Of a stretch of 64,000 bases of DNA, positions 3,153 to 56,100 are shown piece after piece (positions within the stretch are counted from its first letter, which is position 1; the number at the start of each line of letters is the position of its first letter). The notes beneath the pieces were generated by a model. It saw only the letters and a list, made by a program, of their open reading frames with translations. It did no database searches and was not told the origin of the DNA. Location of the stretch: the NCBI RefSeq assembly GCF_036971445.1, contig NC_091480.1:13392001-13456000 (forward strand), in the 5' to 3' direction. The position numbers and the translations under genes were made by a program. The stretch comes from Narcine bancroftii (taxonomy: Eukaryota).

Positions 3153-3650
3153 ATCCTCCCTCTCCAGCCCCCGGGGCAGCCGGCGAGGCTGAATTCGAGC
3201 AGCCGAGGTGGGCGGGGGGATTGGGGAGAGATCAAGGGGCTCCCAGGCGCCGAGAGCAGGGGTTCACAACAATAAACATTCAAGGGGAGGAGGGGGGGTT
3301 GCAAACTCAATGCCAGCCTCGACACGAAGCTCTTGCAGCGGGTCTCCGATCCGGCCCCATCGCCCACCCAGAACCCCCACGCCGGAGACAAAGAACCGCA
3401 GCTCAAGGCAGATCCCCGGCTAAAGCCACCGACCGAGGAAGAGTCCAGCTCCGTCTGCAACCCGTCCAGGTCACCGAGCACTGCCCCCGCCACTCAGACT
3501 GAACCCCTCCAATCCCATCCCCTCCAGGTCCCCACGCTGCCGATCCAACGGGAGGGAATCTGACCGTAAACTCTCCGACGACGTCCAGCGCAGATTTTGG
3601 ACCCGTTCCCATTCCTCGCTCGCTCCCCTTCATTTAGACTTCGTGGATCC
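2750..3650. promoter_or_regulatory. CpG island / probable promoter and 5' end of the EME2-like gene
   Basis: Very GC- and CpG-rich stretch against an AT-rich, CpG-poor background; covers exon 1. Confidence 0.7.
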
Positions 3651-4110: not shown

Positions 4111-5930
4111 CCGTGGTGATTGATTGCTTTATTTGTGAAAATGTTAGATTTTAGGCCAAGGCGTGGGATTGAGGATGATTTAAGACTAAATAATAGTGAA
4201 ATAAATTAAGATTAGTAAAGTTTTATGTACTGACATGTTCAATAAGGCATGCAACACTATTTGGTTTTAACTTACAGTTTCAGTGGAGCACTTGCTGCTG
4301 TGAAGTGTAGTCAAAGAGACGGACACTGGATGAGCACCCTCGAGAGAAAGGAACAGGGGTCTGATGGTCAGCATGAACATGGCGGGCCAAAGGGCCTGCT
4401 CCTCTGGTGTGATGTGCCAACAGGCTGGATATCGTGAAGCGAGAGCCTGCTGTGCCCGAATGCCTCAGAGGTTAGAAGCTTGTAGAAAAGGAAGATGCTG
4501 GAAGTTCCCAGCAATTCAGGGAGCATCTGTGGAGAGAGAGAGCAAGAGAGAGAGTCAGAACAGAGAGGGGTGAGCTTTTAGAAGCAAAGGGGTAGATACA
4601 AAGAAAAGCAAAAGGGAAGTCTGCCACTGGTCTGAGAGAAATATTAAATTGATACACCCCACTTGTTTTCACCTCTCCTTTTCCTTTAAATTGTGGAATG
4701 CTAGGCATTTGTTGGGTGTGCTGGGTTCCAGAACTCCTGGACCTGGGTTGGCTCCACTGTCAGGCTTCCAGGAAGCCCAGAGATAGAACTGAATGTTGCT
4801 GAGAACCTTCTGCAACCCCGCCAGGATATCTGTTCCCTGAACCAGAGCTAATTGGCAAGCCCACTGACTTCAGTGCAGATTGTATGTCTGTCGGGAAGAA
4901 AAGTGAAGGCAAAGCTTTGTTCCTTTTTAAATAATCACCTGTATTATTTAAAGTTTTTAATTGTTTAAACCTGCATATGTGTTTTTTTGCATTAAAATTA
5001 TTTAATATGTTTGAATTCTTAATTTTTTAATATATTTCTGATTGGCAGTCAGCACCCATGGTTAAACTAGGAATTGGAGAGCATTCAGCACCTTGAGTGG
5101 CTCAACCAGGTGAAAAGATCATGGTGGATCTGATCTTAACCTCATCTCTGCATTCACTCTGCCTGCTCCACCCTTTTGCCCACTTGCTCATCAAGAATCT
5201 GTTGTCTCTGCCTTAAAAGCAGTGCTTCTATTGCTTTCCAAAGGCGCAAAATCCTCTGAGAGGAAAACAGTTGCTTCATTTTGTGTCATGTGGGTCAGAT
5301 TGTAAATGTGAAACTGGAGAGGCTACAAACCCCCAAAATTAATCTGCGCCAAAGTGCCATGACTATGTGTGCTCAGTCCTATGGCTGTAATACTCAGGGA
5401 ACTCCTGCCATCTCCCACAGGAATGTGCAAAGCATTGCATCAGGGATTAGGGTGGGGCTCTTGGGACAGCGGATCAGGGGAACATTGGGGGGGTTGCAGG
5501 GAAGATGTGGTGGTGATGAATGATGATCATTGGGAGATGCAGCTGGATTAGTTGAGGTCTGAAAATATGAAATGGGACCCAATAAGTTCAGGAAAAGTGT
5601 CTGGTTAGAATGTGGAGTATAGAATAGCTGTGGCCCATGGCCCTAAAGATGAGGTAGTAACATTCGGGGTTACACAAGGATCCATACATTAGGTCTCAGA
5701 TCTTCCACCCTCTCTGTTGAACAGTCTGCAGGTCCCACATTGCCCTCATCAGGATCGAACACAGGAATAGAATGGACACAAGTCCTCCAGACTGCAAACT
5801 CAATTTATCCAAGTCATCAGAAATTTCAGCTGACTTAATTTATTCAGCAATGAAATGACAACATTGAATATGTATCATTTGTCTGTATGTGTGTTATGTC
5901 TGGTTGAGGACCACAGGTTGTTCATATATT

Positions 5931-16800: not shown

Positions 16801-19800
16801 TGGCGGCAATTTTTTTTTAAGTTTGTAATTATTCTAAAAAAACATTTCTGGCATAAATCTGCTGGCAAGATGAGCATGGAGGCTACTTAATCAACTCTGA
16901 GTCAAATTGATGCAATGTCACACTTACTTGGTAAAAAACGCATCAGAGTCGTACGGTTACAGGGTTAAGAGAAGGAAATTTGCTTTTTATATCTAATCCA
17001 GATACTTCTTTACCATTCATACTATCGTTTTTTATATTTTATTTAAAATCAACACATATATGACAATTTTTACAATAAAATAATGTCACATTGAAATAGA
17101 ACTTACAAATAGATGCTGATTTATATATATATATTTATATGTATATAAAAAAGAAATTTAAAAAATTTAAAAAACCCATATAAACCCCAATAATCTCTAC
17201 CCCCCCCCCAACCCCAACCCTTGCTACTCCTACTAAAAAACTAATATCTAAAATATATAACATAGTTATACATTGAATTGGATTGCTTCAAAAGATGCTC
17301 AGAGATCCCCCCAAAAAAAACATTATTGATTTTCAGGGAAGACTTCACTGGTGGTTTGCCATTTCCTAACTTTAGATTTTATTGCTCGGCGGTCAATATA
17401 CGTAACTTGATTTTTTAAAATTACAATTTGATATACCAAATTGACCACCCCACTGGGGTAGAAATGGAACTAAACTTTACAAGAATATTTCCATGTTGGC
17501 AATTCTTGGGGCTTCTTTATCCTCTTCCTTAGACAAACGAACTGACAACCCGGTTGCTAAACACAGTTTGAGAATATCGGCAAAATTTAGAACGTTTTTT
17601 GGATTTCAGAGCTTTTCTCTTGCTCACCCTATTACGTCCAGTCACCTCTTTCAACCATCTTTGCAAGACTCTGCCTTCAAGGATTGGCACAGTCTGGGTA
17701 TTAAATGTTTTAAAGTCATTTTTACTGACAACAATTTTGCATCTTTTGAACAATTTGTTGTAAAATTTAACGTATTGAAAACTAATTTTTTATTTTTTTA
17801 AAAGATATTTACAATCTCAGATTCCTGATTTTCCTGGGAATCCAGAGGCAAATATTCTTGATACATATTTTGAACTACAACCTCCTTATAAAGGCTTAAT
17901 ATTGGCTGATTTAAGACAGACGGTTAATTAAAATTAAGAACACCTGGGAGCAGGACTTGAAGTTTACGCTGTCCAATGAGGTTTGGAGCTCCATTTTTCA
18001 ACTGATTAATACTACATCCCTTTGTGCATGGCACAGTCTGGTGCAATTTAAAGTGGTTCATAGAGCACATATGTCTAAATTAAAATTGTCTCAGGGTGAT
18101 GCTTCTTTAATTCATATGTTTTGGACCTGACTAACTTAGGAAAATTTTGGAAGGATGTTTTTCAAACATTATCAGAGATTTTAAATTTAAAATTGGAACC
18201 AAGCAATTCAATTGCTCTTTTTTGGAACATTTCGAGAAGATGATATGTTACTTCAATTCAATGCTGTGTTTTATCTTTTATCTCATTGATAGCCAGATGT
18301 GAAATTTGATTAAATGGAAAAATAATACTCCACCTACACACGCACAATGAATATTATATCTTGTTTAAATTTGGGAAAAAAAATTAGATATGAGGGTTAA
18401 TAACTCAAATATTAAATTTCAAATGATACGCACCTTGTAGTTGGATGACTACCATAATCTTAAGATTTAGTGTTAAACTGGAATCTTGGCGTTGTGCTGT
18501 CCCTCTCTAAGTCTGCGCCACCTGGATTTATTAATGATAATCTTCAACCTTGCTTTGGAGAAGGGGGTTTTGAAATTTAATTATCTTTTTTTGTTTCTTC
18601 ATTGTTATGTTCTATTTTAGTACCTTGAATGTGCTTTGGAACTTATAACTTTTTTCTGATCTTGTAGCACACTTCATAACTGTATTGTTCAATTTTTTTT
18701 TTAATTGTAAAATATCAATAAAAATATTTTTTGGAAATAAAACACTCCTTCCTCCTACCTTTGGCAGTAAACCATCTTCATAAGCAGGCCAGCTACAAGA
18801 ATACACAATTGGCCTTCCTGTGGCATTGAGAGCATAGCTCATCTTTGGATAACCTGAGGAACAGAACACAGGTTTCAACTCATTGCCAATCATTTGCAAT
18901 TTTATCACTACTTTTTTCAATCTGTGACAGACTTCTGAAGGAAAATAATTTAAATGTTTTTGATAATATGACAAACTGAAGCATATAATTGTGGTGTGGA
19001 TTGTGGAGGGCCACGTGACCTCTCTGACTGGAACCTGGTCGGATTGTGGACTGCGGAGATACATCTGACATTTCCGACAAGCCTGAGATCGGAAGTGACT
19101 TCACCTGCCAATCAAGGGTTTGATCTGCAACAGGTGAGGTTGACAGGCAATTGGTTCGATCAGGTCACATAAACCTGATTGAAAAGGCAACACAATCCTG
19201 CTTGTTCTCTTTTGTTGCTACCTCAAGACCATTACTGAAGTCCAGACTTCAGGCCATGGGCTGCACTGGAGGGCCAATTGCAATGGGCCTGTCCAGGATC
19301 CTGAGCTGAGGGCAATACTAGAAACTACGTTCGTTTGATATACTTGTTAGTTGTAATTAATTTACTGTTCATAAGTGTGCTGTGCCTGTGGGTGGATGGG
19401 TAATTTGTGTTTAACCCTTGAATTCCCATTTGAGAGTTGAGAATGTTAAGAAATGATTTATTTGCACCCCATATGCAGTTATTTGTGTATTGTTGCTGTG
19501 TATGTACCAAGTAAGTATGTATGAGTGTGTGCTTTATGCATAAATAAAGACCACTGTTTGTTAATAACACATGTCCGTCCAGCCACGATTCTCTTTGAAC
19601 CCGTCAAACCTATTCAGAACACAACAACAATTATTCAAAAACAAGGATGTTAGTGTGCAACTAATTCAAGTTTTTGACAGTGAGGATTATTCATTGTCCT
19701 TGTAAATTTGAACTCAATTATCTTTTTAACGTGTGCCTCCTGTTTATTTAGGGAGCCATTATGTTAGCACTTCAAAATCTTAGAGAGGTACCTATTGATC

Positions 19801-22416
19801 TTTCAGTAGAGTTGGAATTACAACCATCGAGCTTCAGCATGTCTACTTCCCATTCTGCAAATGTCCTGGCATCAAGGTCAACTGTCTCTAGTAAGGTACC
19901 GAGATACCCACCACAGGTTGAGTGGCCCAAGTCTCCATAAATCCCTAGCTTCAATCCTTTGAAATGAACCTAGCATACATAAAGATCAAGAAATAAATAT
20001 AGTTTCAACATGAATAATTATCTTACTTTGTGGAGATATTTTTCTCTACTTAAAGTCTGAAGAAGAATGCATATTTTATTTGCCCCTTCAGGAAACAATC
20101 TGTCTCATTGAAGATAATCAACACAATCCATTGTTATCATGGTAAACAAAAGGTTTCTTAATTTCTTAAGTTGCTCCTTACGTTTAGAGTTTTAACTTAC
20201 TTTAGCGTTTATATACTTTAATTTAACTTATTTTAACATTAACTTTTAGTGTTTTAACTTACTTTTGGTGTTTTAAACAAGTGGTATCTTAACTTTTCAA
20301 GTGGCTCCTTGCTTTTTAAAAATTGTACACAATAATTGGAACCAGACATTTGTTTTCAATGAGTCCTGGTACAAAATGTCTCCTGGGGCGAGTGGAGGAG
20401 TCTCATTACCAAGGGCCAGTGGCACTAAAGTCCAAAATACTGAGCAGAATGCAAAGGTGAAGTAAGAACAATTAAAACTGACTGAACTAAAACAAGATCA
20501 CACCTGATCACTTAAAGGTGCATCTGAAATTTTATTTTCCAAATACATTTATCCAAAATTATGAAAGCTTACTAATTAAAATTATCTTTAATAACTGTGC
20601 AAAGGGTTTCTTTTTACTATATGGGTATTAGAATCTATTCTACTTTAAATTCTATTTGCAAGCTCATATATTGAAATATTATTTATAAGAAACAAAATAT
20701 TCGAGGATGAACAAAAACAAAAATGATTTAGCTAAAGTGAAAGTCAGATGAGTTTTATAGCAGGTCATTAAGAGTATTGATAAACTCGCCCGATTCTCTA
20801 AATGATTCAGGTACAGTGGGAGTTCCCATAGATTGAAATTTTCTCTGCTTTTGCAGGAGAAATCCTAAAATCCAGGCTGCTCGGGGATTGGGCTGGATAG
20901 GATTTTCAAGCATGTAATGCTTGGAAATTATGTCTAAAAATGAACATTGTCAAAGAAAAATGCAGGATACAAATTAATTTCTTTGTGATATATTTACCTG
21001 TATAAAGCGTGGTCACTTGTTGCCACTGAGCACCTGTGGTGCTTAGACACACACACAAAAGCCCACTAAAATTTAAAGGTTTCAGAGTTTTCAAAATGTG
21101 CGGATTCTCAGATGGTCCAGATTTCTGGCATCCGGATTTTTGGACTTCTACTGTATTTTACATCATTCATAAACAAGGCAAGAATAGATGTAATCATTTT
21201 CTAGCTATTTGTCAGGTCATTTCCATCCTGATATTTGGAAGATAATTATAATTCTTCATGCAAAGGACACCAGCCCATTAAAGGAGAAGAGAAGGGTAGA
21301 AGAGAAGGTTACTCACATACTCAGCCAGTCCTTTAATCCCACTTGGGAATCGGTCTGGATCTGGCTGAAGTTTTCCATTGATATCTCTCACCATCGCTGA
21401 CCAACAATCGTCAATGTTTACATATTGATACCCCAGATCTTTCCAGCCATCTTCCACCAGCTTGTCCGCCATTGCCCTAAACAACCTTTCACTGACAGAG
21501 AGGAAAATCCAAGAGGATCTGATTTATTTTAGTTATTAAAATTATTTTAGAATGATGCATGTGTTGTTGGCAAGGTCTCACTAGAACACTACACTATAGC
21601 TTAGAAACAGCCCCTTTGGCCCATCTAGTCCATGCCAAACTATTATTCTGCTCCGACCCAGAGTAAATTTCCCATCTCTAAATGTCCCTGAGGAGAACCA
21701 CTTCCACGAATCACTCTGGGAGATTAATGGGGTTAATGGGTGAGCCATTGATGGTCAGTCTCTCATACACCTGAAGCTCTTGTCCTCTTTGATGGTAGAT
21801 GTTGTGGGTTTGGGAACCAATGCCAGGGTAGACAAGAGAAGTGACTGTGGCTTTTGTGCAGGACTGGTGGAAGCAATGAAGTAGATTGTTTGTCTCAAGC
21901 TTTTTGACTTGCCACTCCCAAACAGAAAAAAGGAGTGAGCCAACAAAAAATAAACGTAACAGGAGAAACAGAAAATAAATCCTTGAGCTGCTTCTTGGGG
22001 CAGAGACTGGTCTTCAACCTGAAGCGTTAACTCTTTTTCCTCATCCTATAAATGTAGCCTGACTTGCTGAGTGATTCCAGCGTTGTAAATGAATGAGCTG
22101 GAAAGACAGTGACAATTTATGCTTTCTTGCTTGATGTTTGTGGATTTTATTGACAGGGGCTTGAGGCTCACAACTCATATTTGCATAAATCATTTGCTTG
22201 GTTTGAAACACATTCAGAATCCCGTCTGGATACTGCTTGAAGAGCCTACCTGATACAGTTGTCAGGGTATAATTTGCAATCCGTTGTGCATTTGAAACGT
22301 TCCCAGGCTATCCAGCCCATTGGAGGAGTTCTTGCCAAACCATTATCCAGAGGCTCACATAGCCCAACTAGTGTCAGGTACAAGGATATGAAAAGGACAA
22401 GAGTTCCACAATGCAT
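10624..22416 (-). CDS. GH27 alpha-N-acetylgalactosaminidase-like lysosomal glycosidase, 7 coding exons, 411 aa (probably a NAGA paralog rather than the ortholog)
   Basis: Exons 22416-22250, 21491-21317, 19969-19792, 18853-18759, 14875-14714, 13514-13317 and 10884-10624 all have GT-AG boundaries and join in frame (1236 nt). Signal peptide, [25 protein letters not shown] (nucleophile Asp), CSWPAY, WRNYDD (acid/base Asp), [11 protein letters not shown]. Confidence 0.93.
11027..11309. mobile_element. Solo LTR (283 bp)
   Basis: TGTG...CACA termini, exact 5-bp TSD GTAAC (11022-11026 and 11310-11314). Confidence 0.8.
11335..11990 (-). mobile_element. Penelope-like element fragment
   Basis: [13 protein letters not shown] Cys-linker remnant upstream of GIY-YIG, plus terminal repeat with TTGATGAAG...CCGAAATGTTGG. 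Confidence 0.7.
12666..13158 (-). mobile_element. Non-autonomous Chapaev3-like DNA transposon
   Basis: TAA-CACTGGACAACAA TIR; transposase C-terminal remnant [44 protein letters not shown]. Confidence 0.7.
13317..13514 (-). CDS. NAGA-like coding exon 6
   Basis: 198 nt; [66 protein letters not shown]. Confidence 0.95.
13975..14605 (+). mobile_element. CR1 LINE 3' fragment (degenerate)
   Basis: [12 protein letters not shown]...FWSPH remnant, TRGH motif, TTCTATG tail. Confidence 0.75.
14714..14875 (-). CDS. NAGA-like coding exon 5
   Basis: 162 nt; [54 protein letters not shown]. Confidence 0.95.
15340..16105 (+). mobile_element. Penelope-like element 3' part (GIY-YIG endonuclease remnant plus terminal repeat)
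   Basis: [21 protein letters not shown]...CRLLYIRKT...RLGDRF...[10 protein letters not shown]; ends CATACCTTGATGAAGGGCTCAA. Confidence 0.8.
17330..18740 (+). mobile_element. L1/Tx1-type LINE ORF2 3' part (degenerate)
   Basis: [23 protein letters not shown] and ASLIHMFWT remnants; AATAAA/A-rich tail ending ~20 bp from a NAGA-like splice donor. Confidence 0.75.
18759..18853 (-). CDS. NAGA-like coding exon 4
   Basis: 95 nt; (G)[31 protein letters not shown]. Confidence 0.95.
18990..19626 (+). mobile_element. Solo LTR (637 bp)
   Basis: TGTGGTGT...ACACAACA inverted termini, TSD ATAAT/ACAAT, AATAAA near the 3' end. Confidence 0.75.
19792..19969 (-). CDS. NAGA-like coding exon 3
   Basis: 178 nt; [59 protein letters not shown](G). 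Confidence 0.95.
21317..21491 (-). CDS. NAGA-like coding exon 2
   Basis: 175 nt; (S)[58 protein letters not shown]; donor GTGAGT. Confidence 0.95.
22250..22416 (-). CDS. NAGA-like coding exon 1 (exon starts at 22427)
   Basis: [55 protein letters not shown]; donor AG|GTAGGC; acceptor T-run CCCCAG| 11 nt upstream of the ATG. Confidence 0.92.
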
Positions 22417-31929: not shown

Positions 31930-32410
31930 ACTCCTACTTGATGAAGGATATACTGGCCTTGGAGGCAGTGTAGAGGAGGCACACTAGATATATTCTAGAG
32001 ATGAGGGGGTTATCCTACTAGGAGTGGTTGAAACATCTGAGATTCAGAAGAATGAGAGGGGATCTTATCAAAAAGTATAAAATTATAAAAGGCGTAGATA
32101 AGATAGAGGTAGGTAAGTTTTTTCCCCGCTGGTCTGGAAGATTTAGGGTAGTAGATTTAGGATGGAGGTGAGGAGGAACTGCTTCTTCCAGAGAGTGGTG
32201 AATCAGTGGAATTCTCTACCCATGGATGCAGTGGAGATGCCTCAGTAACTATATTTAAGACAAGATTGGATAGATGTTTCAAGAGTAGGGGAATTAATGG
32301 ATATGGGGAAAGGCAGGTAGGTGGAGATGAGCCTATTATCAGATCAGCCATGATCTCAATAAATGGAGGAGCAGGATCGATGGGCTGGATGGCCGCTCGC
32401 ATTTCTCATG
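31930..32410 (+). mobile_element. CR1 LINE 3' fragment
   Basis: RRMRGDLIK...FQRVVNQWNSLP...FKTRLDR remnants. Confidence 0.7.
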
Positions 32411-32749
32411 CTCCATCAGCATAGACATGACAAGTAGAAGTCGTAAGATGAAGGGAAATATCTCGAGCAAACTCAAGGCCTCCCACTGTATTGCACCAGC
32501 CATGTTCGCTTTCTTTGGGATACCTTGAACCTAAAGATGTGTTTCCAACTCAGCCACAATCACCAAACTGTTTCTGATTTTCTAGCATTCATGTATTACC
32601 CGTGGGGTTGGATCAGAATTTTTGTGGCGCTTTGATGCTCCAGTTGAGAACTGCTCAGCATTTCATTTTGCAAAGTTGTTTCCCAAACTTAGGAATTTGT
32701 CATTCACATTGAATTACAAAACATTTAAGCTTCTAATAACAACGGATTC

Positions 32750-33650
32750 CCATTCCGAATCCGATTCTATCTGCACTGGTGCTTGAGATTGGCGAACGAA
32801 AAAGAAGATGAAGCATTCCTTGTTTCTCTCACACCTTTAGCCCCCGAAGTATTTGGGTTTTTGTTTACGAAGTGCCGGCATCTTCACCCTGGAAACAAAT
32901 CGCGAATTCTGTGCAAATCTTTTGGAATATCGCAACTCCCAAATCGTTTCAAGAAGTTTTCCAATGGTGAGTGGTCAGATGTCCTTTTGGAACTGACACG
33001 CCCTTAAAACGAGAGCAAAAGGATTGCCCCGCATTCACCGAAGCTTGAAAACGACTGAGTGAAGGTGTCAACGCAACTTCAGCAACGAAGAAGCGGCACC
33101 TGCCACCGGCATTTACTGGCACTGGGTCCCTTGCCTTTTAATGGTCAATATTGCCCCTCTTCAACATCCATTGGCTGTGTGCGGGGGATGCATCGTCCAA
33201 TGAGATATTCAGAAGTGGAATAGTGTGCACGCCCTTTGCACATTGCGGATTATCGGACGTCTGCAAGGCAACTGCGGATAAGGGGAAAGGCATCGGGGGG
33301 GGGGGGGGGGGGTTGAAAGTGTCTGCTTTTTTGTTGTTGTTGTTGGCATTTTACAGCTGATTTAAGCAGAGCTTGGGTTTGAGAAACTTTTGGGCCACGG
33401 TTTTGCTCGTTTGGCACAACTTTATCAGCCAAAAACAATCGGGTGCATCAGGACCCGTCCGCAGGGCAAATGCAACTTTCAAGTTGCCATCTTCCACTGC
33501 TGGGCTACAGGGGCAAGGGGGGGGCGGGGGGGGCTGCTTCCCCGTCAAAGTGCAAGGACTGAGCCAAAGCAGCGGCCGGCTGCCTCCCATCGGCGCAAGA
33601 GGACGCCGCCCACCGCCGCAAGCTGAACTTCAACGAGGATGAGACGGAGG
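32750..33650. promoter_or_regulatory. CpG-enriched region, probable promoter of the Myb/SANT-like locus
   Basis: Raised CpG/GC content and G-runs immediately upstream of and overlapping exon 1. Confidence 0.5.
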
Positions 33651-34591
33651 TCCTGATCTGTGAACTGACTCTGATCCAGGAGCAGCTCTTTGGCCGAGGA
33701 GACACCAAAATCCCGGCAAGAGCCAAAAACAAGATCTGGCATTCCATACTGGCCAAGGTTAATGCTGTGTCCAAGTGCACCAGGGACATAGGTGACATTA
33801 AGAAGAGATGGTATTACATGTGCCACCGGTCTACGGTCTAAGGCTAAAGTAATCAGGTTGACGCAGGAGGCAATGCAGAGCGAGAACATTATCCAAACCC
33901 TGCACCAGGAGGCTGCCAATCAGAAGGTCACGAGCTATGATGCTTCAGGGCCCAGAAGCTGCAATAACAGAGGGCAACAGGCAAGCCATGGGCTACCACA
34001 CGAAGAAGTCCATGCCACCCAGCGAGGTGAGGGGGCAAGCCAAGAAGGTGCCAGAGCAGATGTTGCCACATCACCCAGTCCAGTGGCCATCCATCCTGCT
34101 TTTCACAGTGGGGCCGAATGCTACAGAGGGAGCCAAACAGGAGTCTCGAGGCCATCAAGCTAATGTAGACTTTCGTGATGAGTTGCTTCTCGACAGTCCC
34201 TTGGTCAACAACTCATGCCACCAAAGTTCCCCATTTAAATGACCAGTGAATCAACCTGCTTGGTGTAAACCCAAATGAGGAACAATGAAAATCAGTCTGA
34301 GGGTCTGAAGGACGGGTGCTGTGTGGGTAGTTAATGAGAAGATTGTTACCCATTGTGATGTCAGAGACTTATCCCAATTTGTCCTGTCCCTCTTTGGTCC
34401 TTCTGTTTTGAGAGTTTTGAAATAATTTTCACCAGCTCTCTATATTCTATACCCTGTTTATTAGAAAAGGTAATCTCTTGACCTGTAGTCTTATTGTCAC
34501 TTCCCACGGGCAGTGAGAATGTTGAACGACCAAAGGAACTGCTCGCACTAACCATCCAAGACTCTCATATTCCTGAAACAATATTTATTTA

Positions 34592-36432
34592 ACCATATAA
34601 CCACTTACAGCACAGAACAGGCCAGTTCGGCCCTACTAGTCCATGCCGTAGCAAATCCCCACCCTCCTAGTCCCACTGACCAGCACCCGGACCATACCCC
34701 TCTAGTCCCCTCCTATCCATGTAACGATCCAGTCTTTCCTTAAATGTAACCAATGATCCCGCCTCGACCACGTCTGCCGGAAACTCATTCCACATCCCCA
34801 CCACCCTCTGCGTAAAGAAATTTCCCCTCATGTTCCCCTTATAATTTTCCCCCTTCAATCTTAAACCATGTCCTCTAGTTTGAATCTCCCCCACTCTTAA
34901 TTGAAAAAGCCTATCCACATTTACTCTGTCTGTCCCTTTTAAAATCTTAAACACCTCTATCAAGTCCCCCCTCAATCTTCTATGCACAACCTTTCCCTGT
35001 AACTCAGACCCTGAAATCCTGTCAACATTCTCGTGAACCTTCTCTGCACTCTCTCTATTTTGTTTATATCTTTCCTATAATTTGGTGACCAAAACTGTAC
35101 ACAGTGCTCCAAATTTGGCCTCACCAGTGCCTTGTACAATTTCATCATAACCTCCCTACTCTTGAATTCAATACTCCGATTTATGAAGGCCAACATTCCA
35201 AATGCCTACTTCACCACACCATCTACCTGAGTATCAGCCTTGAGGGTACTATTTACCATAACTCCTAAATCCCTTTGTTGCTCTGCAATCCTCAATTGTC
35301 TACCATTCAATGTATATGACCTATTTAAATTTGCCTTTCCAAAATGTAGCACCTCACATTTATCTGTATTAAATTCCATCAGCCATTTCTCAGCCCACAC
35401 CTCCAGCCTTCCTAAATCACCTTTTAATCTACGGTAATCTACCTCACTGTCCACAACACCACCAATCTTTGTATCATCCGCAAACTTGCTTATCCAATTC
35501 TCCACCCCTACATCCAGATCGTTAATATATATAACAAATAACAGTGGACCCAGGACCGAACCCTGAGGAACTCCACTAGTCACCGGCCTCCAATTGGACA
35601 AACAATTTTCTACCACTACTCTCTGACACCTCCCATCCAACCACTGCTGAATCCATTTCACTACCTCTTTATTTATACCTAATGCCTCCACCTTTTTTCC
35701 TAACCTCCTGTGGGGAACTTTGTCAAAAGCTTTACTAAAGTCTAAATAGACAACATCCACAGCTTTCCCTTCATCAACCTTTTTTGTAACCCCCTCGAAG
35801 AACTCAATCAGGTTTGTAAAGCATGATCTACCCCTGACAAAACCATGCTGATTACTCCCTATCAATCCCTGGACCTCCAAAAATTTGTAAATAGCATCCC
35901 TCAGAACACTTTCCATCAACTTGCCCACCACAGACGTCAGACTTACAGGCCTATAATTCCCAGGTTTGCATTTGGACCCTTTCTTAAAACAGAGGAACCA
36001 TATGCGCCACCCTCCAATCCTTTGGCACCACCCCCGTGGCCAGTGACATCCTAAATATCTCGGTTAATGGCCCCACTAACTGTCCACTAGCCTCCCTGAG
36101 TGTCCTAGGGAATATTTAGTCCGGTCCGGGAGATTTATCCACCTTTATCTTTTTTAACACAGCCATCACTACCTCCTCGGTTATCCTTATATGCTTCATG
36201 ACCTCCCCACTATTTTTCTTTACTTCAACTGGTTCAACATTTTTTTCCCTAGTGAATACCGAGGCAAAGAAATCATTCAAAATTTCCCCCATTTCCTCAG
36301 ACTTCTCACTCAGCCTACCCTCACTATCTACAAGGGGTCCAATTTTATCTCTCACTAATCTTTTACTTTTAATGTACTCATAGAAACCCTTTGGATTTAT
36401 TTTTACTCTGTCAGCCAAAGCCTCTTCATGCC
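34592..36432 (-). mobile_element. 5'-truncated CR1 LINE (RT domain) in the intron of the Myb/SANT pseudogene
   Basis: KSPGPD, QHGFVRGRSC, DFSKAFDKVPH, GVPQGSVLGP, FADDTK; few lesions; tail GTGCTGTAAGTGGTTATATGGTT. Confidence 0.95.
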
Positions 36433-36714
36433 TTAAACTTGACTGGACTTGCCGCTCCACTGCAAGCATTTGACAGTTACTCCAGCTGTGCTGAAGCAGT
36501 TCAACCAAAGCTGGGAACTTCTTGCTGGGAAATTGGAAATGAACAGCTTCATTTCATTACCAGTGCCCTATTTTGATTCATAATACCATTCTTTTGCTCT
36601 CCCAAATTATTTCTCTTTAGTTGGTCAATTTATCACAAAATTACACCATATTCAGCTGGATTTTCTTTGTAGGTATAACCTAAAATATACTTCAAAAGAG
36701 TATTAACCAATAAT

Positions 36715-37275
36715 CAAAAGTTGGTGATGGAAAATGCGCTGACTGGGTGCATCACAATCTGGTATGGGGACACCAATACCCCTGAGCGTATACCCGGGAA
36801 AAGGTAATGAACAGTCTAGGACATCACAGGCAAGACCCTCCCTACTATCGAGCACATCTACGTGGAACGCTGCCACCGGAGAGCAGAGGCAATCATCTAG
36901 GATCAACACCACCCAGGACATGCTCTATTCTCGCTGCTGACATCAGGAGAGAGGTGTCGGTGCCACAAGACCCGCACCACCAGGTTCAGGAACAGCTGCT
37001 CCCCCTCCACCATCAGACTCCTCAACACAAACTCAATCAGGGACTCATTTAAGGACTCTTACTTGTACACTTTATTGATTTTAAAAAATTCTCTCTATAT
37101 TGCACAGTCGGTTTGTTTATATTCATTATCTGTTTACAGTTCTTTATTTGTTTACATGTATGCAGTCTGTACATTTTTTGCACAACCAATTAGTAGTAAT
37201 TCTGCCTTGCCTGTAGGAAAAAGAATCTCAAGGTTGGATGTCATTTATGTACTCTGACAATAAATCTGAAAACTC
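36715..37275 (+). mobile_element. Rex1/Babar-type LINE 3' part
   Basis: LTGCITIWYG...HHPGHALFSLLTSG...TRFRNSC remnants. Confidence 0.8.
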
Positions 37276-39050
37276 GAAAGTCTACAGACACTGTGATTGA
37301 AGTAAAAGCCCAATTTTGGACAAACTCAGCAGGTCAAATAGTGTTCTCTACAGTATATACTGTAGCAAAGTTAAAGATACATTACCAACATTTCGGGGTT
37401 GAGCCCTTCTTCATGATGAAGGCTCAAGCCCAAATCGTTAAGTTTAGAATGTGTTTTCAATTAATAGTTATTTGGCAGAATTGGATAAATAAAAATAATT
37501 TAGGAAAATGCAATTTTTGCAACAGTTTAGTTTGACTGTAATTTCAAGGTGCATTGTGACGACAATGAACTTTTTTCCTGTCACATGACTGACTAATGTC
37601 TTCTATTACCTGTGTGTTAACAAATATGGTTTGTCAGCAATCTATACAAGATATCCAGAGCTCCGCTCTTAATGCAAAATTCACAGCTGATACTGTAAAA
37701 TGTTTCACCTAAACAAGTTGGCTTTTTGGATTCTTCTGTTTTTATGCATAATTTTTTTTAAAAAAGCACATTTCCCATGTCTTGCTTTCTTGCTAAGTAT
37801 TTCCAGTAATTTTAATTTCATTAAAATGCTTCAATTTTGCTTATTCACAAAATTAAAGTCTTTCACTAGTCTGTGTTCATACTTCACAAGATTCAAGAAC
37901 AATTCATTTCCTGCCTTGTCAGAATCCTGTATAAATTTCACACCAATAAAATAATGATGCTTTTTCTCTGTTCTAACAGATCTCTTTCTCTGTAATTCTG
38001 CACTCCGTATTGTGTTTTAACTGCTGTTCTTTGTACGGCTGAATGAGCTGGACTGCTCGCAAAACAAACTCTTTTTGTACCTTAGTACATGTGACAATGA
38101 ACTTGAACATGAAATTCAAGACCCTATTTCAAGATGTGGAAGAGAAAATTACAAACAAAACTGTGTCAAACATTGTATAATGAATATATTTTAATAGGGA
38201 AAGATATGTGTAAAACAATGGAAAGATTGATCCTGCTTAAGTACAATTTTAGTTACTTAGTTTGCAATTCAGTACTAATTTAAGCCTTTTTTAAAATTAA
38301 ATTATTTGAATGGGTGAAGTAACATTTTCACTTAACTTGCACTTTTATCATGAAATAAATACTTCCTAAATTTTATTCAGTAAATAAATGAATATATTTG
38401 ACCAAATTTACATGGTAAAGTAAGAGGGCAATTTATTTCTCCTTAATATACAAGATAGGATCAGGTGCATTGTTAACTTCCAGTTCCTAAGATTTATGTT
38501 CCACTATTATCTTCATTACTGACAAAAATCAAGTACTTCTACTGCTGAAGTGAACAGAACTTGGTAATATGAATAAAGTTATGTCTTTACAAAAGACATC
38601 ATTTATGTGATAAGTTCATTGTTGCCCATGGATCTTTAGTACTCAACCGTAACTATTAAAAATGTGGATTAATTATTTTAATCAAAAGATTTTAAGAATA
38701 CCTAACATAATTTAAGAAATTATGTTTAAATTTATCTTTTTTTCTTTCCTCCTTTGTACAACTGTCCTCTTTTCGTCCTGCTGGAAACCACCCATTCATA
38801 TTTACACTTGCTTCTCTAACCTTCCACCTCATTATTATTGTAGTTCATTCTGCTTGGTTGAAGAGATATCTTTCTTCAGTTCAGACACCATACCTCGCAA
38901 TTATTTAGTATTTTGGCAGGGATGGAGAGGTGGTGAATAACTGCTACTGAAAGTGGTCTGATATATAAGCAAAAAAAGGTTTCTGATATATTGGTGTGTA
39001 TGATCAGGAGTATTATTTATACATGATTATATTATGATTATATTATTTGT

Positions 39051-39299
39051 ACGGTGCATCTTGGCGCCTCACAGTTTGGCGGGCAGCAACCTCCTTTGAA
39101 GAAGACCGCAGAGCCCACCTCACTTACAAAAGGCAAAGGAGGAAAAACCCAACACCCAACCCCAACCAACCAACTTTCCCCTGCAACCGAGTCTGCCTGT
39201 CCCACATCGGACTTGTCAGCCACCAACGAGCCTGCAGCTGACGTGGACATTTACCCCCTCCATAAATCTTCGTCCGCGAAGCCAAGCCAAAGAAAAAGA
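39051..39299 (+). mobile_element. RTE LINE 3' end with 11-bp TSD
   Basis: TSD ATATTATTTGT at 39040-39050 and 39300-39310; ASWRLTVWRAATSFEEDRRAHL...HQRACS. Confidence 0.9.
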
Positions 39300-39789
39300 A
39301 TATTATTTGTCCACAGAGACCATTGATGATGTGAAACAGGAAGATATTGGTTCAAATGTCGATGTGGATTATTCTTCACCAGAAGTTGGATCTCCACTGA
39401 TCTTTCGAGAACCAAGTCCATTCCAGTGGCAAGGAAAGAGGGTACATAAGCAGATTTCTGAGGAAGAACTTCTAGGGATCCAGGAGCAACACAATAGATT
39501 ACTTGGGGTTGGAAATGATGAGTTACATGGAATCAGACAGGAACTGAAAGAGCTCCGAGATGATATTCGTGAATTGGCCACCACCATCAGGCAGCCCCTA
39601 GAGCAACTGGCAAATTGAGTGCAAGCTCTCCTTCCACCGCTGCACCATCCTCCTCATACTCAACCATCAGAGATGACCACCTCCTTCACACAGCACGATA
39701 AACCGACTTCAGAACCTAATGAGCTTCTATCCTTTCATCGCCAGACACACCGAAAAACCAGTAAAAGAGCAAAGCTGAAAGTATAATAA

Positions 39790-40355
39790 AACCAGAAAAT
39801 GCTGGAAACACTCAGCAACTCAGGTAGTATTTGCAGGAAGGGAAAGGGTTGATGATTCAAGTTTGGGACCATCATCAGAACAAGGAAAGTGAGCTCTCCC
39901 AGTGGCCACTTGTTTCAATTCTCCGCCCCATGCCCTCGCTGATATGTCTGTCCATGGTCTCGTGCACTCCCAGACTGAGATCACCTGCAAATTGGAGGAA
40001 CACCACCTCATGTTCCATCTGACCACCCCCCCCCCCCTAACTACTTGGCATTAACTTCAACTGATTCGGTTTCTGCTTATCTATCCTTCTTTCCCCATTC
40101 CTCTCTCTCTCTTCTTTCTTTCATATCTGCATTCATAGAGTCGTCCCTCCTTATCCTCTCTTGTCCTAACCATGTCCCATTACCATGTTTTGTCTGTTGA
40201 TCTATGCTCCACCCCCTGCCCTTTTATTCAGGCTCCTGCCTGCACTTTACTCATACTTTAAAGGGCTCAGGCCTGAAACAAAAGTTTTATATCTTTACCC
40301 CCCTATAGAAGCTGCAAGTCCTGCTGAATTCCTCTAAGCATTTCTTTGTATTTAC
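39790..40355 (+). mobile_element. Penelope-like element remnant with inverted terminal copies
   Basis: CTCTCCCAGTGGCCACTTGTTTCAATTC and KLEEHHLMFHL remnants; AATGCTGGAAACACTCAGCA...CCTGCTGAATTCCTCTAAGCATT ends. Confidence 0.65.
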
Positions 40356-40443
40356 AAAGAAAAACCAAGTTTTGATAATAATTTAAACTTCTCTTTTAGG
40401 AATATCATCCTTGAAGATGTTCTCCTCTGCCCTTCACTAGACC

Positions 40444-40643
40444 NNNNNNNNNNNNNNNNNNNNNNNNNNNNNNNNNNNNNNNNNNNNNNNNNNNNNNNNN
40501 NNNNNNNNNNNNNNNNNNNNNNNNNNNNNNNNNNNNNNNNNNNNNNNNNNNNNNNNNNNNNNNNNNNNNNNNNNNNNNNNNNNNNNNNNNNNNNNNNNNN
40601 NNNNNNNNNNNNNNNNNNNNNNNNNNNNNNNNNNNNNNNNNNN
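40444..40643. other. Assembly gap (200 N)
   Basis: Run of exactly 200 N, likely a fixed-size scaffolding placeholder. Confidence 0.99.
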
Positions 40644-41047
40644 TAGCAGGCAAAAGGGAATTTCCCTTATTACATGTGTCATAGGACACTATTTTATTAC
40701 TGTAATAATAAATTGAATCTTGAATGATGTGGAAAGGATATTCTGTTACCAGAACAAATTTTGATGTTTTCTAATTCAGGATAAATAGAGTCTTCTGAAA
40801 CAATGGCTTTTGCAGGGAGGCATGGATGGTTTGTCTGAAGCTTGAATTGACGGTAGATCAGAGCATGAAATAGTCTCTTTACCCAGTGCCATTCACTAAG
40901 ATCTTGGGGTTGAACATTGGAAAATTGGGAGGAAAATGGGAGTTAAGGCCAAACATCGGGTTGGTTATGATCTTTACAACTAACTCCATTAGGTTGCACA
41001 AGGAATGAGCAAGATTGTGTTATTCTAGTTTCTGATTATTTGTAGTA

Positions 41048-42648: not shown

Positions 42649-43470
42649 TTCTTCTTTGGCTTGGCTTCGCGGACGAAGATTTATGGAGGGGGTAAAAAGT
42701 CCACGTCAGCTGCAGACTCGTTTGTGGCTGACAAGTCCGATGCGGGACAGGCAGACACGATTGCAGCGGTTGCAGGGGAAAATTGGTTGGTTGGGGATGG
42801 GTGTTGGGTTTTTCCTCCTTTGCCTTTTGTCAGTGAGGTAGGCTCTGCGGTCTTCTTCAAAGGAGGTTGCTGCCCGCCAAACTGTGAGGCGCCAAGATGC
42901 ACGGTTTGAGGCGATATCAGCCCACTGGCGGTGGTCAATGTGGCAGGCACCAAGAGATTTCTTTAGGCAGTCCTTGTACCTTTTCTTTGGTGCACCTCTG
43001 TCACGGTGGCCAGTGGAGAGCTCGCCATATAACACGATCTTGGGAAGGCGATGGTCCTCCATTCTGGAGACGTGACCCATCCAGCGCAGCTGGATCTTCA
43101 GCAGCGTGGACTCGATGCTGTCGACCTCTGCCATCTCAAGTACTTCGACGTTAGGGATGTAAGCGCTCCAATGGATGTTGAGGATGGAGCGGAGACAACG
43201 CTGGTGGAAGCGTTCTAGGAGCCGTAGGTGGTGCCGGTAGAGGACCCATGATTCGGAGCCGAACAGGAGTGTGGGTATGACAACGGCTCTGTATACGCTT
43301 ATCTTTGTGAGGTTTTTCAGTTGGTTGTTTTTCCAGACTCTTTTGTGTAGTCTTCCAAAGGCGCTATTTGCCTTGGCGAGTCTGTTGTCTATCTCATTGT
43401 CGATCCTTGCATCTGATGAAATGGTGCAGCCGAGATAGGTAAACTGGTTGACCGTTTTGAGTTTTGTGTG
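42649..43470 (-). mobile_element. RTE LINE 3' part inserted into an older CR1 fragment (~42540-43650)
   Basis: Open frame AEVDSIESTLLKIQLRWMGHVSRMEDHRLPKIVLYGEL...HKRVCS. Flanks rejoin as CR1 TTAAAGAGCATT|AAAGTGGATAACTCCCC. Confidence 0.92.
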
Positions 43471-44989
43471 AAAGTGGATAACTCCCCAGGGCTTTATGGA
43501 ACATTTCCCAGATTATTAAGAAGCAAGTGAGGAGATTGCTGGGACCTTGACAAATATCTTTGTATCATTGCTACTGGTTGGCAAGGAGGTTCTGGAGCAC
43601 TGGAGAGTAGTCAATGTTGTTCCTTTGTTCAGGAAGGGAAAATGGTACTTCTCCCCTATCGACGACACAATAAAACATTTTTTTTTTTAAATTGTTACCT
43701 GAGGTGAAAAGAAAAGAAGGCTTTTACTTAAATTTGCTGTGGTCCTGTTGAGAATGGCTGCTCTTGACAGACATGTGAAGGGAATGGAGAGAGATCTAGT
43801 ATGTGTAGATCGCAGAGTTTTGGTTTAATTTGGGCATCATATTCAGCACAAGGCATTGTGGGTTAAAGGGCCTGTTCCTGAGCTGTATTGCTCAATGCTT
43901 AATTATGATAATTATTGTACTGTGACATAATGCTTCTGTTAAATGAGGCCTGCCGCTCCTAATGAGTGTAATGCTATACTGCTGGCCTATAGTATTTTTT
44001 TATTTGGTTTCTTTCACCATCTGTAATTAACATGGACCTGAAGAATATTTGGTAAGATTCTATTTCTAGGCAAGATGAAAGATGAGGACCTTTTTTCCAT
44101 TATATTCTCGCTGTTTTTCTGGGGAGATTTTGGTTGTGTACTCCATATTATAAAGAGTGCACCTTGTAGAGCCAGTCCCTCGCAATGCCTAACCCTAACC
44201 TGGGGAAGAGCCTAGCAAATGCACAGATAAAGAAGTTAGAAAAGAAGCCAAAGAATTGAATGAGTGAAGTTCTGCATTGTGGGGAGATTTCTGTTTGTAC
44301 ACAAGAACAATGAATTTTTGGAGTAATTTTGAGTTCAGGTGCTGATGGTGTGGAATTTGCAAGATCTCCCTGGCACCGCATGGATTTTCCTCTGGTGCCC
44401 TGGTTTGCTATCTCAACCCAAAGATCTGTGGGTTAATTGGCCACTATAAAATTGCCCTCAGTGAGTGGTAGAATCTCGGAAGAGTAAATGGGAATGTAAT
44501 GTAAATACTGGATTGTTAGTGCAGACTCAGTGGGCTGTAGGACCTGTTTCAATGTCAAATGAGTCTGTAGTTATTGTGCAGGTTAAAGATTTGAGTGAAG
44601 CAAATATCTGATTTAATTATTTCAAAATACAAGTTTATAATGTGATGAGGGTTTTCTGCTCTAAGGTTAAGGTGTCAAAACGGGAGTATTTCTCCTTGAA
44701 ACAAAGAAGGTTATGACATTTGATTATAGATATACAAGACCATACCTGGTTCAGATAGATATCCACAGTAATTCAGTGGCATTATATCATCTCATTTCTT
44801 TTGGTTTCACAATCAACTTCTGTTCCTATTTGTTTAAATCATTAAATCAGTTAAAACTTTAAAATGGGTTCTACCGCTATTGCTTAATTATTAAATGATT
44901 ACTTCTCAGCAATAAATGCCGTAGTCTTGAGACTCAGAGCGTATAACAAACATGTGTAACTTCCTGAAGATGACCATGTTAATTGAGTT

Positions 44990-46090: not shown

Positions 46091-46188
46091 TTAATCATAC
46101 TCCTGAGCCTCCAAGTTGTGGATGCCTAAGATGAATATGATTTTTTTTCCATTCAAATCATATTATTTTAATAAATCATAGAATTAAG

Positions 46189-46829
46189 CGTATACAGAGC
46201 CGTTGTCATACCCACACTCCTGTTCGGCTCCGAATCATGGGTCCTCTATCGGCACCACCTACGGCTCCTAGAACGCTTCCACCAGCGTTGTCTCCGCTCC
46301 ATCCTCAACATCCATTGGAGTGCTTTCATCCCTAACGTCGAAGTACTCAAGATGGCAGAGGTCGACAGCATCGAGTCCACGCTGCTGAAGATCCAGCTGC
46401 GCTGGATGGGTCACATCTCCAGAATGGAGGACCATCGCCTTCCCAAGATCGTGTTATATGGCGAGCTCTCCACTGGCCACCGTGACAGAGGTGCACCAAA
46501 GAAAAGGTACAAGGACTGCCTAAAGAAATCTCTTGGTGCCTGCCCCATTGACCACCGCCAGTGGGCTGATCACGCCTCAAACCGTGCATCTTGGCGCCTC
46601 ACAGTTTGGCGGGCAGCAACCTCCTTTGAAGAAGACCGCAGAGCCCACCTCACTGACAAAAGGCAAAGGAGGAAAAACCCAACACCCAACCCCAACCCAC
46701 CAATTTTCCCCTGCAACCATGTCTGCCTGTCCCGCATCGGACTTGTCAGCCACAAACGAGCCTGCAGCTGACGTGGACTTTTTACCCCCTCCATAAATCT
46801 TCGTCCGCGAAGCCAAGCCAAAGAGAAAG
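46189..46829 (+). mobile_element. RTE LINE 3' part with 9-bp TSD
   Basis: TSD AGAATTAAG at 46180-46188 and 46830-46838; near-identical reverse complement of 42649-43300. Confidence 0.92.
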
Positions 46830-53100: not shown

Positions 53101-56100
53101 AAGAGTATAAAAAGCTATTCCACAGTTTAACATTCATTGGAGAAACTGGTCTTTAAAGGTTTGTGTGAGTCAGATACACCAGACACTTTTTTTGTTGCAG
53201 GTCTCCACTGCCCTATCCTGGAACAGAGAGGGACTATGAGGTAAAGTAAATATCATTAATTATTTCAATGTACAACCGTTAAGCTTAGTCCTTTCCTCAC
53301 CTATTGAGTATGAACTGTCTCCATTTCAGGGCCAGTTAGAGTTACACGATAAACGTGAGGTTTACTAATGGCAATGTCCTGTGAATTGAGAAAAATTTTA
53401 CTGTTGAACTTAAGATGGAGGAGATAAATATCCTAAAGGTAAATTAGGATTCTAATCATGTATTTTCAAGATAAGTGGTGAAATAAATCAGAACATTTAG
53501 TAATTGGGAGTAAGATCCAATTCCTACTCTCAGACGTATGGATTATTTGTTTGCATTACTAAAAGGAAAGATCGTTGAAAAAGGATGCATAGCCTGATTG
53601 ACCATCTGATGTTCTATCCGTTCATTAAAATTGGTTACTGTTTTTTTCCCAATAGTTCTGGAACCTATGCCACTAAATGTTCAATCCACCGTGACTTGGG
53701 ATAGGAACTTGCTTCTCGTCCCCTTATGTTCCATGTAATTTCAAAGAATAGGTGTGATGTCACCTAATAAGAAACACGAAATGGTCTGTTTTCTCTGCTC
53801 GGGCATCATGAAGTTTAAAACTTTAATGTTGTACTGCAAAAATTAGATGGAGCAAATCCATTGCAGCTGACATTGTATTTTACTTGATGTAATGCGATGT
53901 TTTCTCTGATACAGTCATGGGAAAATGGAAATTAAATCACTTCAGTGGGAAATTGAAGAATAATGGCAAAGAACATAAATATTGACAAGGAAATTAATTA
54001 ACATTTCAGGCTTGTGTTTAAGCAGAGCAAGAAAGAGAATCATTTGTTTTGAAATGTCATGGCAATAGTAAGTTTCTCAACAATTAAACACTTGGGGGGT
54101 ATATATCCCAAGATTTTAAGCTTTACAAATAAAATATTTTAAATTTGCATTGTTATGCAACTATATTTCATCAGAGAAGGAAGAAATAAAGGAACATGGT
54201 TGATGATGGTGTCTCTTGAATGGGATGTTATCTGGGAGGAACGTGGAGGTATGGTTCCTGTTTTAAGGAACATTTCTAAAGTGGGCTAGAAGAACAAAAA
54301 AGTGTTGCATGAGGGGCAAAACAATGATAATTTATTGAAGGAAGAGTAATCAGATTGAGGAAATGGGTGAGCAGAGGTCCTCCTATTGGACATGAATTGG
54401 ATTATTTATTGAATTGAACTGTTTATTGTCACGTACTGAGATACAGTGGAAAACTTTATTTTGCATACTATTGGGAAAATCAACCAAAACACGGTGCAAA
54501 AATCAAAAGAAAAGTTCAGGGAACAGTATCAGATTAAAAACAAAAAGTTCAGGATATAGTTGTTAAAAGATAAAAATCTTTGTCTAATGGAAAGTCCATT
54601 CAAGAATTTGATAACCGCAGGAACTGTCCTTGAATCTAGAAGTGAGTGTTTTCAAACTCGTGTATCTTCTTCCTGACTGGAGTGGATTATGACCTATATT
54701 ATGTTGGAAGTTTTCTTGAGGCAATGGAAGTTGTAGATCGAGCCATCAGAGGAAAGGTTGGTTTGTGTGACAGGCTGAGCTCCATTTACAACTCCTTGCA
54801 GTCTTGGGCAGACCATTTCCCTTATCAAACTGTCATGCAATTGAACAGGATAATTTTATGATACATCTGTAAAAGTTGATCGGGCACTGGGGCATGCTAA
54901 ATTTCTTTAGGCTTCTGAGGAAGTGGAGGACTGGTTCCTGGTTCAACCATCTCAATGTGTTAGACCAGGGACTGGTTATTGGAGTTATTTTCTCTGAGGA
55001 ACTTGAAGCTCTCCACCATCTCTACTTCAGCACTTTTGGATACAGGCAGGAGCATGTGCTCCATTTCGTTCCGTTTTAAGAATATGTTTCAAGATGTGTG
55101 ACTTGTATAATTTTACTTTCTAGGTATTTCTTCAAGAACTTGTGAAAAATTTGTATGATGAGGGAAATGATAAGTTCAGAGAAGGAAATTGGGCTGAAGC
55201 TTTGAATAATTATACTGAGGCCTTGAATGTGGCCGATTATGCATCTGAAGAAATCAGTATTGTGAATGGATTAATAGAGAAACTTTATGCCAATCGTGCA
55301 GCTTGCTATTTGAATATGGTAAGATTTTTTAAAATTGTAATATAGGACAAATGCTTACCGAGAAACGTTCTCAATGTTTGATGGCGAGAATTAAGACCTC
55401 TCAATCACAATTCATCATGTTATTTTGCTTCAGGGGAATCAGTGTTAAGATGGACATTTTATTTTACTTTGTTGTGGACATTTTGACTCTGACATCACAA
55501 CCGATGATCCCAGTCGTGTTCCAAGCAATGACTCTTAGGACAAATCACAGGATAACTTTATATCCCACAGTTTATTTTCACTGTATAGGTTTGTTGAATG
55601 CTAAAACTAATTGTCTCCAGCATAACATATGCTAACATAAATCATTATATTTGTTGTGTATTTCTTGTAATTTCAGGGTCTCTATAATCAAGTATTAAAG
55701 GATTGTGACAAGGCTTTGCAACTGAATCAGAATAACTACAGAGCACTTTTTCGAAAAGGGAAATCCTTGAAAGAATTGGGAAAGCATAAAGAAGCCTATG
55801 ATGTTGTTGCAAAGTGTTCTCTAGCTGTGCCACGTGTAAGGAAATGCCATTTAAATCTCCATATGTTGCCTAATAACTTTTCCAGAAAAGATGATTCGGA
55901 GCCCTGCCCTGTGGTTTAATCTTACTTTTCAAAATGTACTTATTGAGTTTAACACAAGGCGAACTAATGATAACATAAATCATATACATATCAAATGTAA
56001 ATTGAGGCATAACCATAATTATTACATAATTTATTCAAAACAAATTCTATAATTATAATAATTAAATCATAATTTGTACCATGTCTGAAAATAATATTGA

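Follow-up and report, generated by a model that had tools for sequence, protein, structure and literature searches.

A probable unitary pseudogene of a conserved elasmobranch Myb/SANT gene in the ray Narcine bancroftii

MYPOP (p42POP) represses promoters with Myb elements via its DNA-binding domain, according to the accessible text of two reports (PMC6265261, PMC13187161). Harbinger Myb-like proteins and NAIF1 bind DNA as well as partner proteins, and MYPOP and TSNARE1 are regarded as putative Harbinger derivatives (PMC9392472, accessible text). This survey began from human proteins, and the word 'shark' is absent from the same text. Here, a related locus is described in a 64,000-nucleotide stretch of Narcine bancroftii (assembly GCF_036971445.1, contig NC_091480.1, positions 13,392,001 to 13,456,000 of the forward strand), referred to below as the window. 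The locus is likely a unitary pseudogene of a conserved, automatically annotated Myb/SANT gene of elasmobranchs. NAIF1, MSANTD1-4 and TSNARE1, classed as derivatives of Harbinger Myb-like genes, share its domain superfamily and are also single-copy host genes with introns (PMC9392472, accessible text).

An earlier note on this DNA, made from the sequence alone, had proposed a recently pseudogenised Myb/SANT gene with three lesions. The present analysis supports a two-exon, single-copy, pseudogenised Myb/SANT host gene but corrects its exon structure. The pseudogene has five lesions, and its parts are as follows (positions in the window).

32501-33588, plus strand: CpG-enriched upstream region, likely promoter and 5' untranslated region (observed/expected CpG 0.66-0.76; putative promoter function)
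33589-33592, plus strand: lesion 1, lost start codon, ATCG where the orthologs have the initiator Met (Met precedes the first aligned residue in 17/17 orthologs)
33593-33838, plus strand: Myb/SANT-like DNA-binding domain, exon 1, first frame (PF13873; 65-73 identities over 89 residues with each of the 17 orthologs)
33827-33841, plus strand: lesion 2, 7-nucleotide tandem duplication with frameshift and TAA at 33839-33841 (tblastn frame jump 33832/33834 against orthologs)
33840-33968, plus strand: exon 1, second frame, covering the last part of the recognition helix and the beginning of the linker (tblastn frame 3, alignment)
33969-33972, plus strand: lesion 3, frameshifting deletion of ~47 nucleotides relative to the skate ortholog, with loss of the conserved SEPSTS motif
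33973-34177, plus strand: exon 1, third frame, in which the cryptic donor 34026/34027 and the conserved motif QWP..LLFT lie (tblastn frame 1, 34-55% identity among the matches listed)
34178-34183, plus strand: lesion 4, dead ancestral splice donor, ATGAGT in place of GTGAGT
34178-39316, plus strand: intron of 5.1 kb with fragments of long interspersed nuclear elements (LINEs) and a high-copy repeat (RVT_1 at 35209-36063, minus strand)
39317-39615, plus strand: exon 2, coding for an acidic linker followed by a coiled-coil helix that has a MYPOP-like C-terminal motif (68-81% identity to 8 ortholog clusters)
39616-39618, plus strand: lesion 5, TGA where the orthologs have a Cys or Tyr codon (ortholog alignment)
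39619-39786, plus strand: rest of exon 2, helix end, basic tail and ancestral stop (colinear with ortholog C-termini to the last residue)

The frame 33563-33838 is the sole Myb-like frame within the window. Its match to PF13873 (Myb_DNA-bind_5; E 7.4e-16, 58.3 bits vs a cut-off of 21.7) bears out the domain assignment of the earlier note. Exon 1 is found by tblastn in three successive frames (33593-33832, 33834-33968 and 33973-34177), and 348 codons of an ancestral gene of ~365 remain in the window. The sequence CCCATCGGCG at 33586-33595 lacks an in-frame ATG and contains ATCG at 33589-33592, as had been reported; a one-base insertion would be the simplest reading of this lesion. The duplication of CGGTCTA (33827-33833 and 33834-33840), with its TAA at 33839-33841, was likewise seen as described. 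So was TGA 39616-39618, after which 55 codons stay open to TAA 39784-39786, overlapping AATAAA (39785-39790).

Lesions 3 and 4 had been overlooked. In lesion 3, 17 residues of the skate ortholog lie opposite four remaining bases. As for lesion 4, unspliced ortholog products read FH-GEF (skate-cluster contigs, P0020, P0021) or FD-GEW (bamboo shark, P0032) at the end of exon 1; spliced ortholog models continue as FH-ETI or FD-ETT, and the window reads FR-DEL, i.e., G/ATGAGT. Since the read-through of the orthologs fits G/GTGAGT, the ancestral donor is placed at 34177/34178, with its first base changed in the window. The intron of the window copy has the same position as in the skate and bamboo shark orthologs. 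The splice from 34026 to 39317 proposed earlier stands with regard to the sequences of both sites (GAG/GTGAGG at 34026/34027, CAG/AG at 39316/39317), but 34026 lies inside the ancestral exon 1 and is a cryptic rather than the true donor. The repaired model of 300 codons, which itself counts 299 codons and a stop, has to be abandoned: it uses the wrong donor and misses two lesions, and its residues from ~33970 to 34026 are out of frame relative to the intact orthologs. With no start codon, a frame that stops at 33839 and a dead donor, production of the full protein would be impossible in this lineage.

An alternative start and a read-through of the last stop were rejected. The upstream ATG 33470 is in frame but cut off by TGA 33560. 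The lost Met is the first residue in 15/17 orthologs, and the likeness of the upstream stretch to an N-terminal extension in Heptranchias was not significant (E 1.3). A selenocysteine reading of TGA 39616 was discarded, as four other lesions precede it and Rfam gave no match at E<=1 across 32400-41000. Three bases before the dead donor, a weak GT (TTC/GTGATG, 34174-34180), in phase with exon 2, is created by an Arg codon where rays have His. A very high-copy repeat at 39040-39298 (depth above 10^6), alike to LINE pieces at 42706-43512 and 46175-46771, ends ~18 nucleotides before the exon-2 acceptor. The branch point was perhaps lost to this repeat, which would make a sixth lesion. The CpG content is indeed raised upstream, although moderately (observed/expected 0.76 and 0.66 across 32501-33500, 0.48 at 33501-34000); the promoter proposed in the earlier note is a candidate on this basis.

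The expectation that the gene is intact in related species proved correct. Intact named orthologs of 355-413 amino acids were found in 17 species (7 rays and skates, 10 sharks), with 355-385 amino acids if counted from the shared Met. The suggestion that they may be unnamed is half correct: they are already in RefSeq, under automatic names (MYPOP-like, NAIF1-like, uncharacterized) or LOC numbers. XP_059834612.1 of Hypanus sabinus, XP_055507701.1 of Leucoraja erinacea and XP_078273617.1 (LOC144603788), for instance, are intact, whereas the window copy is broken. Read through its lesions, the latter is 55-70% identical to the orthologs (189-234 of 336-344 columns), with the same start, intron position and C-terminus. 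A search with the exon-1 piece gave 11 clusters among 23 candidates (76-84% identity), and one with the exon-2 piece gave 8 among 193 (68-81% identity). Because all 8 exon-2 clusters recur among the 11 exon-1 clusters, both exons belong to one protein.

The ortholog alignment comprised the 17 named proteins; partial models (P0003, P0032, P0035) and unnamed Logan members were left out. PF13873 was found in 17/17 orthologs, F14, W50 and W74 are invariant, and each ortholog has 75-90 of 90 Myb-region residues in common with Hypanus or Heterodontus. When 1.84 billion representatives were searched with a profile, 581 matched at E<=0.001; the best three (E<=4e-86) are elasmobranch and the remaining ones cover essentially the Myb domain alone. 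A second profile search gave 13 matches among 8000 scored candidates, 12 from the elasmobranch family and one a salamander protein. No chimaera protein was present among the named matches, which does not prove its absence. The exon junction is crossed in 10/10 unnamed Logan skate-cluster proteins checked (353-361 amino acids), and those with a contig listed sit on contigs of 1.3-1.5 kb; this suggests an origin from spliced transcripts in skates. In a tree of the 17 orthologs and the window read-through, rays and sharks are split with full support, and carpet sharks, skates, and stingrays/mantas group as expected. Among the rays, the window stands on a branch of its own, the third besides those of skates and stingrays/mantas. 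The gene has been inherited vertically, since its tree follows the species tree.

Selection appears to have been relaxed on the window copy, as judged by a protein-level proxy. The window is changed at 20/142 invariant columns (14%; 14-18% in matched drops), compared to 2-8% in each of 11 working orthologs; at variable columns its change is like that of skates (0.43-0.47). The excess at invariant columns vs three rays gave Fisher p values of 0.002-0.013. At 179 shark-invariant columns, 29 private changes were counted in the window vs 8, 9, 15, 16 and 20 in five working rays, and in the Myb region 15/76 positions are changed vs 6-7 in working rays. According to a neutral simulation, an excess of 5-12% corresponds to ~0.03-0.06 substitutions per site, and 1-2.5 nonsense codons are expected; one is observed. 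Relative to most working rays, the constrained residues show two to three times more change. Five lesions and this amount of neutral drift speak against the recent loss that had been claimed, and the loss is probably old. The rate reported for the epaulette shark is 7e-10 per generation (PMC10587355, accessible text). At such slow shark rates, 0.03-0.06 substitutions per site would amount to a long time. The epaulette shark rate would yield 4-9 x 10^7 generations, probably too many for a ray lineage, and serves here solely as an argument against a recent loss. A long period of neutral drift likely followed the first lesion, during which the others accumulated.

Support for the lesions was sought in Logan contigs, which are filtered and, for sample X4, incompletely listed. 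Samples X1-X3, possibly the source sample, contain 85/85 sampled words of 33400-34300. One X4 contig spans 33320-34529 with two substitutions and one gap. As the sole gap lies at intron position 34273, lesions 1-3, which change the length, are present in this contig. Contigs of X5 and X6 (other samples from other studies) match 34022-34486 and 34082-34232 with 0 differences. Because both cross 34178, the donor change to ATGAGT is confirmed in two further samples. A second X4 contig (39277-39814) has two unplaced substitutions and no gap; TGA 39616 is thus not confirmed base by base. At 85% likeness, the X4 depth is 6.4-7.9 for exon 1 and 6.45 for exon 2, and the lone spanning contig has 5.7. 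Exon depth is near single-contig depth, therefore one copy at this likeness is favoured. The intron repeats have depths of 10^4-10^6 vs ~6 over the exons. No run listed for the locus is on record as RNA, and the RNA status of X5 and X7 is a guess; among the 15 listed of 1006 joints, none joins the exons. The X5 contig 34022-34486 runs through both candidate donors into the intron, and X5 and X7, with zero depth in the bin 39480-39699, are silent on expression either way.

Regarding the placement of the family, MYPOP shares with it an N-terminal PF13873 domain, a C-terminal helix motif, a basic tail and a similar length. Alignment of the C-terminal halves by hhalign recovered the conserved MYPOP helix motif (P 93.5, E 2e-7, 45% over 40 columns), and in a ranking of 148 representatives the family's own fragment is directly followed by 7 MYPOP-clade proteins. 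The Myb-domain ranking runs opposite to this C-terminal signal. The Myb domain of the family is 33% identical to that of MYPOP and forms a separate clade, whereas MYPOP domains resemble one another far more closely, from coelacanth to mammals. In addition, mammalian MYPOP has a long proline-rich stretch, which the elasmobranch family lacks. The Myb domain is 46% identical to that of a lungfish/salamander/lizard gene (XP_043930146.1, XP_069494757.1, XP_060616989.2) with the same start position and a similar length and layout; the C-terminal match to this gene is weak (P 19, E 0.001). The domains of NAIF1 and TSNARE1 fall into tight clades of their own apart from the family, the 10 NAIF1 domains being nearly invariant, and MSANTD1-4 were not identified among the named matches.

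In approximately unbiased (AU) tests (84 columns, 2000 replicates), none of the sister hypotheses with MYPOP, the lungfish/salamander/lizard gene, NAIF1 or TSNARE1 was rejected (p-AU 0.09-0.20). A single clade with MYPOP was neither supported nor rejected (p-AU 0.11), and the values for the sister relation to the lungfish/salamander/lizard gene and to NAIF1 were 0.20 and 0.09. In the FastTree result, TSNARE1 and the lungfish/lizard family are the neighbours of the elasmobranch family (support 0.81); IQ-TREE (45/171 domains) did not recover this placement. By its sequence, the family can be described as MYPOP-like in architecture, without a MYPOP-type Myb domain, and as distinct from NAIF1. The lungfish, axolotl and Anolis gene (P0040, P0061, P0112) is automatically named MYPOP-like or NAIF1-like and belongs to neither. 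None of its three named members is mammalian, and it is possibly another overlooked family. The coelacanth protein XP_014342095.1 (P0043), named RNA polymerase III subunit RPC6, contains a Myb/SANT domain and a coiled coil; either the gene model is a merged one, or a Myb gene is nested in it.

The working of the intact protein can be predicted in outline. In the AlphaFold model of the Hypanus ortholog, the N-terminal domain is helical (residues 11-100, block means 68-87), the middle part is disordered and one helix follows at 252-313. A Foldseek search with this model gave nothing at E<=0.001 (the Zeste DNA-binding domain had E 5), and the best match of a PDB sequence search had E 0.15. The ESM Atlas returned solely PF13873/PF13837 clusters, with unusable taxa. 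The N-terminal Myb/SANT trihelix would bind DNA, and a disordered acidic linker would lead to the 60-residue C-terminal helix, which likely dimerises or binds partners. The basic tail is likely a nuclear localisation signal, by which the intact protein would be imported into the nucleus. The most likely activity of the protein, judging from its resemblance to MYPOP, would be repression of transcription.

As for the origin of the family, PF13873 and the aromatic residues F14, W50 and W74 agree with a Harbinger Myb-like trihelix domain. On the strength of the domain family, a Harbinger origin seems plausible and remote in time. Harbinger elements were not found in the elephant shark, and the terminal inverted repeats (TIRs) of PIF/Harbinger elements measure 25-50 bp (PMC9179366, accessible text). 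The earlier note had claimed that neither TIRs nor a transposase lie nearby, and this was confirmed. None of 104 stop-to-stop frames of at least 68 residues across 22.5-55 kb matches a transposase family, though a heavily broken one would escape. Among the 25 longest of 87 inverted pairs at 31-42 kb, none is of the flanking TIR type; old decayed TIRs could escape.

These results bear on what the locus is. A plain relic of a Harbinger transposon would agree with PF13873 as a domain of Harbinger accessory proteins (PMC9392472, accessible text) and with the many similar unnamed proteins, some from salamander, among the profile matches. It is scarcely credible given the missing transposase and TIR-type pair, the single-copy depth and the intact, vertically inherited orthologs with a common intron position; the many dispersed copies of a transposon are not seen either, with exon depth ~6 and one Myb match in the window. 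Assembly errors in an intact gene are very improbable too. The X4 contig over 39616 does carry two unplaced substitutions. The three indel lesions, however, recur in an independent X4 contig and the donor change in two further studies, and a 47-nucleotide deletion and excess changes at invariant residues are atypical of sequencing errors. The locus could also still work in a reduced form, either as a non-coding RNA or via the cryptic donor 34026 and ATG 33873, giving a coiled-coil protein of ~150 residues without Myb domain. The cryptic donor fits the consensus, its phase agrees with that of exon 2, and up to the TGA exon 2 is 68-81% identical to the orthologs. Yet invariant residues are changed in exon 2 as well (6 of the 20 changes) and such a transcript was not seen in the contig data, so that reduced function is considered quite unlikely. 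It is unlikely, if somewhat less strongly so, that the window copy is a decayed spare and the species keeps a working copy elsewhere. The search for copies was restricted to the window and the incompletely listed contigs. Nevertheless, a sister copy split 0.03-0.06 substitutions per site ago should double the X4 depth at 85% likeness, and exon depth is near that of a single contig; moreover, the orthologs occur once per species.

Several points weigh against a unitary pseudogene of a MYPOP-like gene. In the working ray Rhinoraja, whose frame is intact, 20 private changes were counted vs 29 in the window, making the excess modest relative to the fastest working ray. The start lesion, the frameshifts and TGA 39616 are confirmed solely in the possible source sample. 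The evidence on copy number comes from filtered contigs, leaving a small chance that the genome contains an intact copy of greater divergence. The Myb domain is nearer to the lungfish/salamander/lizard family than to MYPOP, and the AlphaFold model is of poor confidence (mean predicted local distance difference test 51.6, predicted template modelling score 0.25). A MYPOP-like nuclear transcription regulator is the likely product of the intact gene, and this is a predicted function.

A unitary pseudogene remains the preferred reading, and an ordinary lineage-specific gene loss in a little-studied family is likely. The significance is modest: neither pseudogenes nor PF13873 host genes are new in kind. 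The locus nonetheless flags a conserved, apparently unstudied transcription-factor gene of sharks and rays under misleading automatic names, and a lineage living without it offers a comparative handle on its function. No description of the gene was found in the literature searched; subscription journals and the supplements of PMC9392472 could mention it. More tentatively, the elasmobranch gene might be an undescribed vertebrate domestication of a Harbinger Myb gene, missed by human-centred surveys and lost outright in one ray lineage. If so, the domestication would be private to elasmobranchs, or the gene would be an ortholog of the lungfish/salamander/lizard gene, which is apparently missing from mammals, and would then date back to the origin of jawed vertebrates. 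A separate domestication would extend the list in PMC9392472. The ray lineage that lost the gene would then be a natural knockout; in the sharks and rays that keep this regulator, its DNA-binding domain has hardly changed.

The surrounding window contains parts of other genes. Five exons of an alpha-galactosidase-family gene (PF16499), presumably NAGA rather than GLA, lie at 14639-22416 on the minus strand. As regards a promoter shared with the pseudogene, the first coding exon of this gene (22249-22416) is 11 kb away. Exons coding for tetratricopeptide repeats, presumably of a ZC3H7B-like gene, are found at 55124-55916 and beyond on the plus strand. A GC-rich CpG island at 2544-3502 (observed/expected 0.75) has long open frames on both strands. 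It gave no Pfam match in the two frames scanned and is perhaps the first exon of another gene. LINE fragments with endonuclease and reverse transcriptase occur in several frames at 5834-8867 and 34667-36553. Tandem arrays are present at 1914-2193 (62-nucleotide units, 4.5 copies) and at 58129-58730 (AT-rich, 57-nucleotide units, 10.7 copies).

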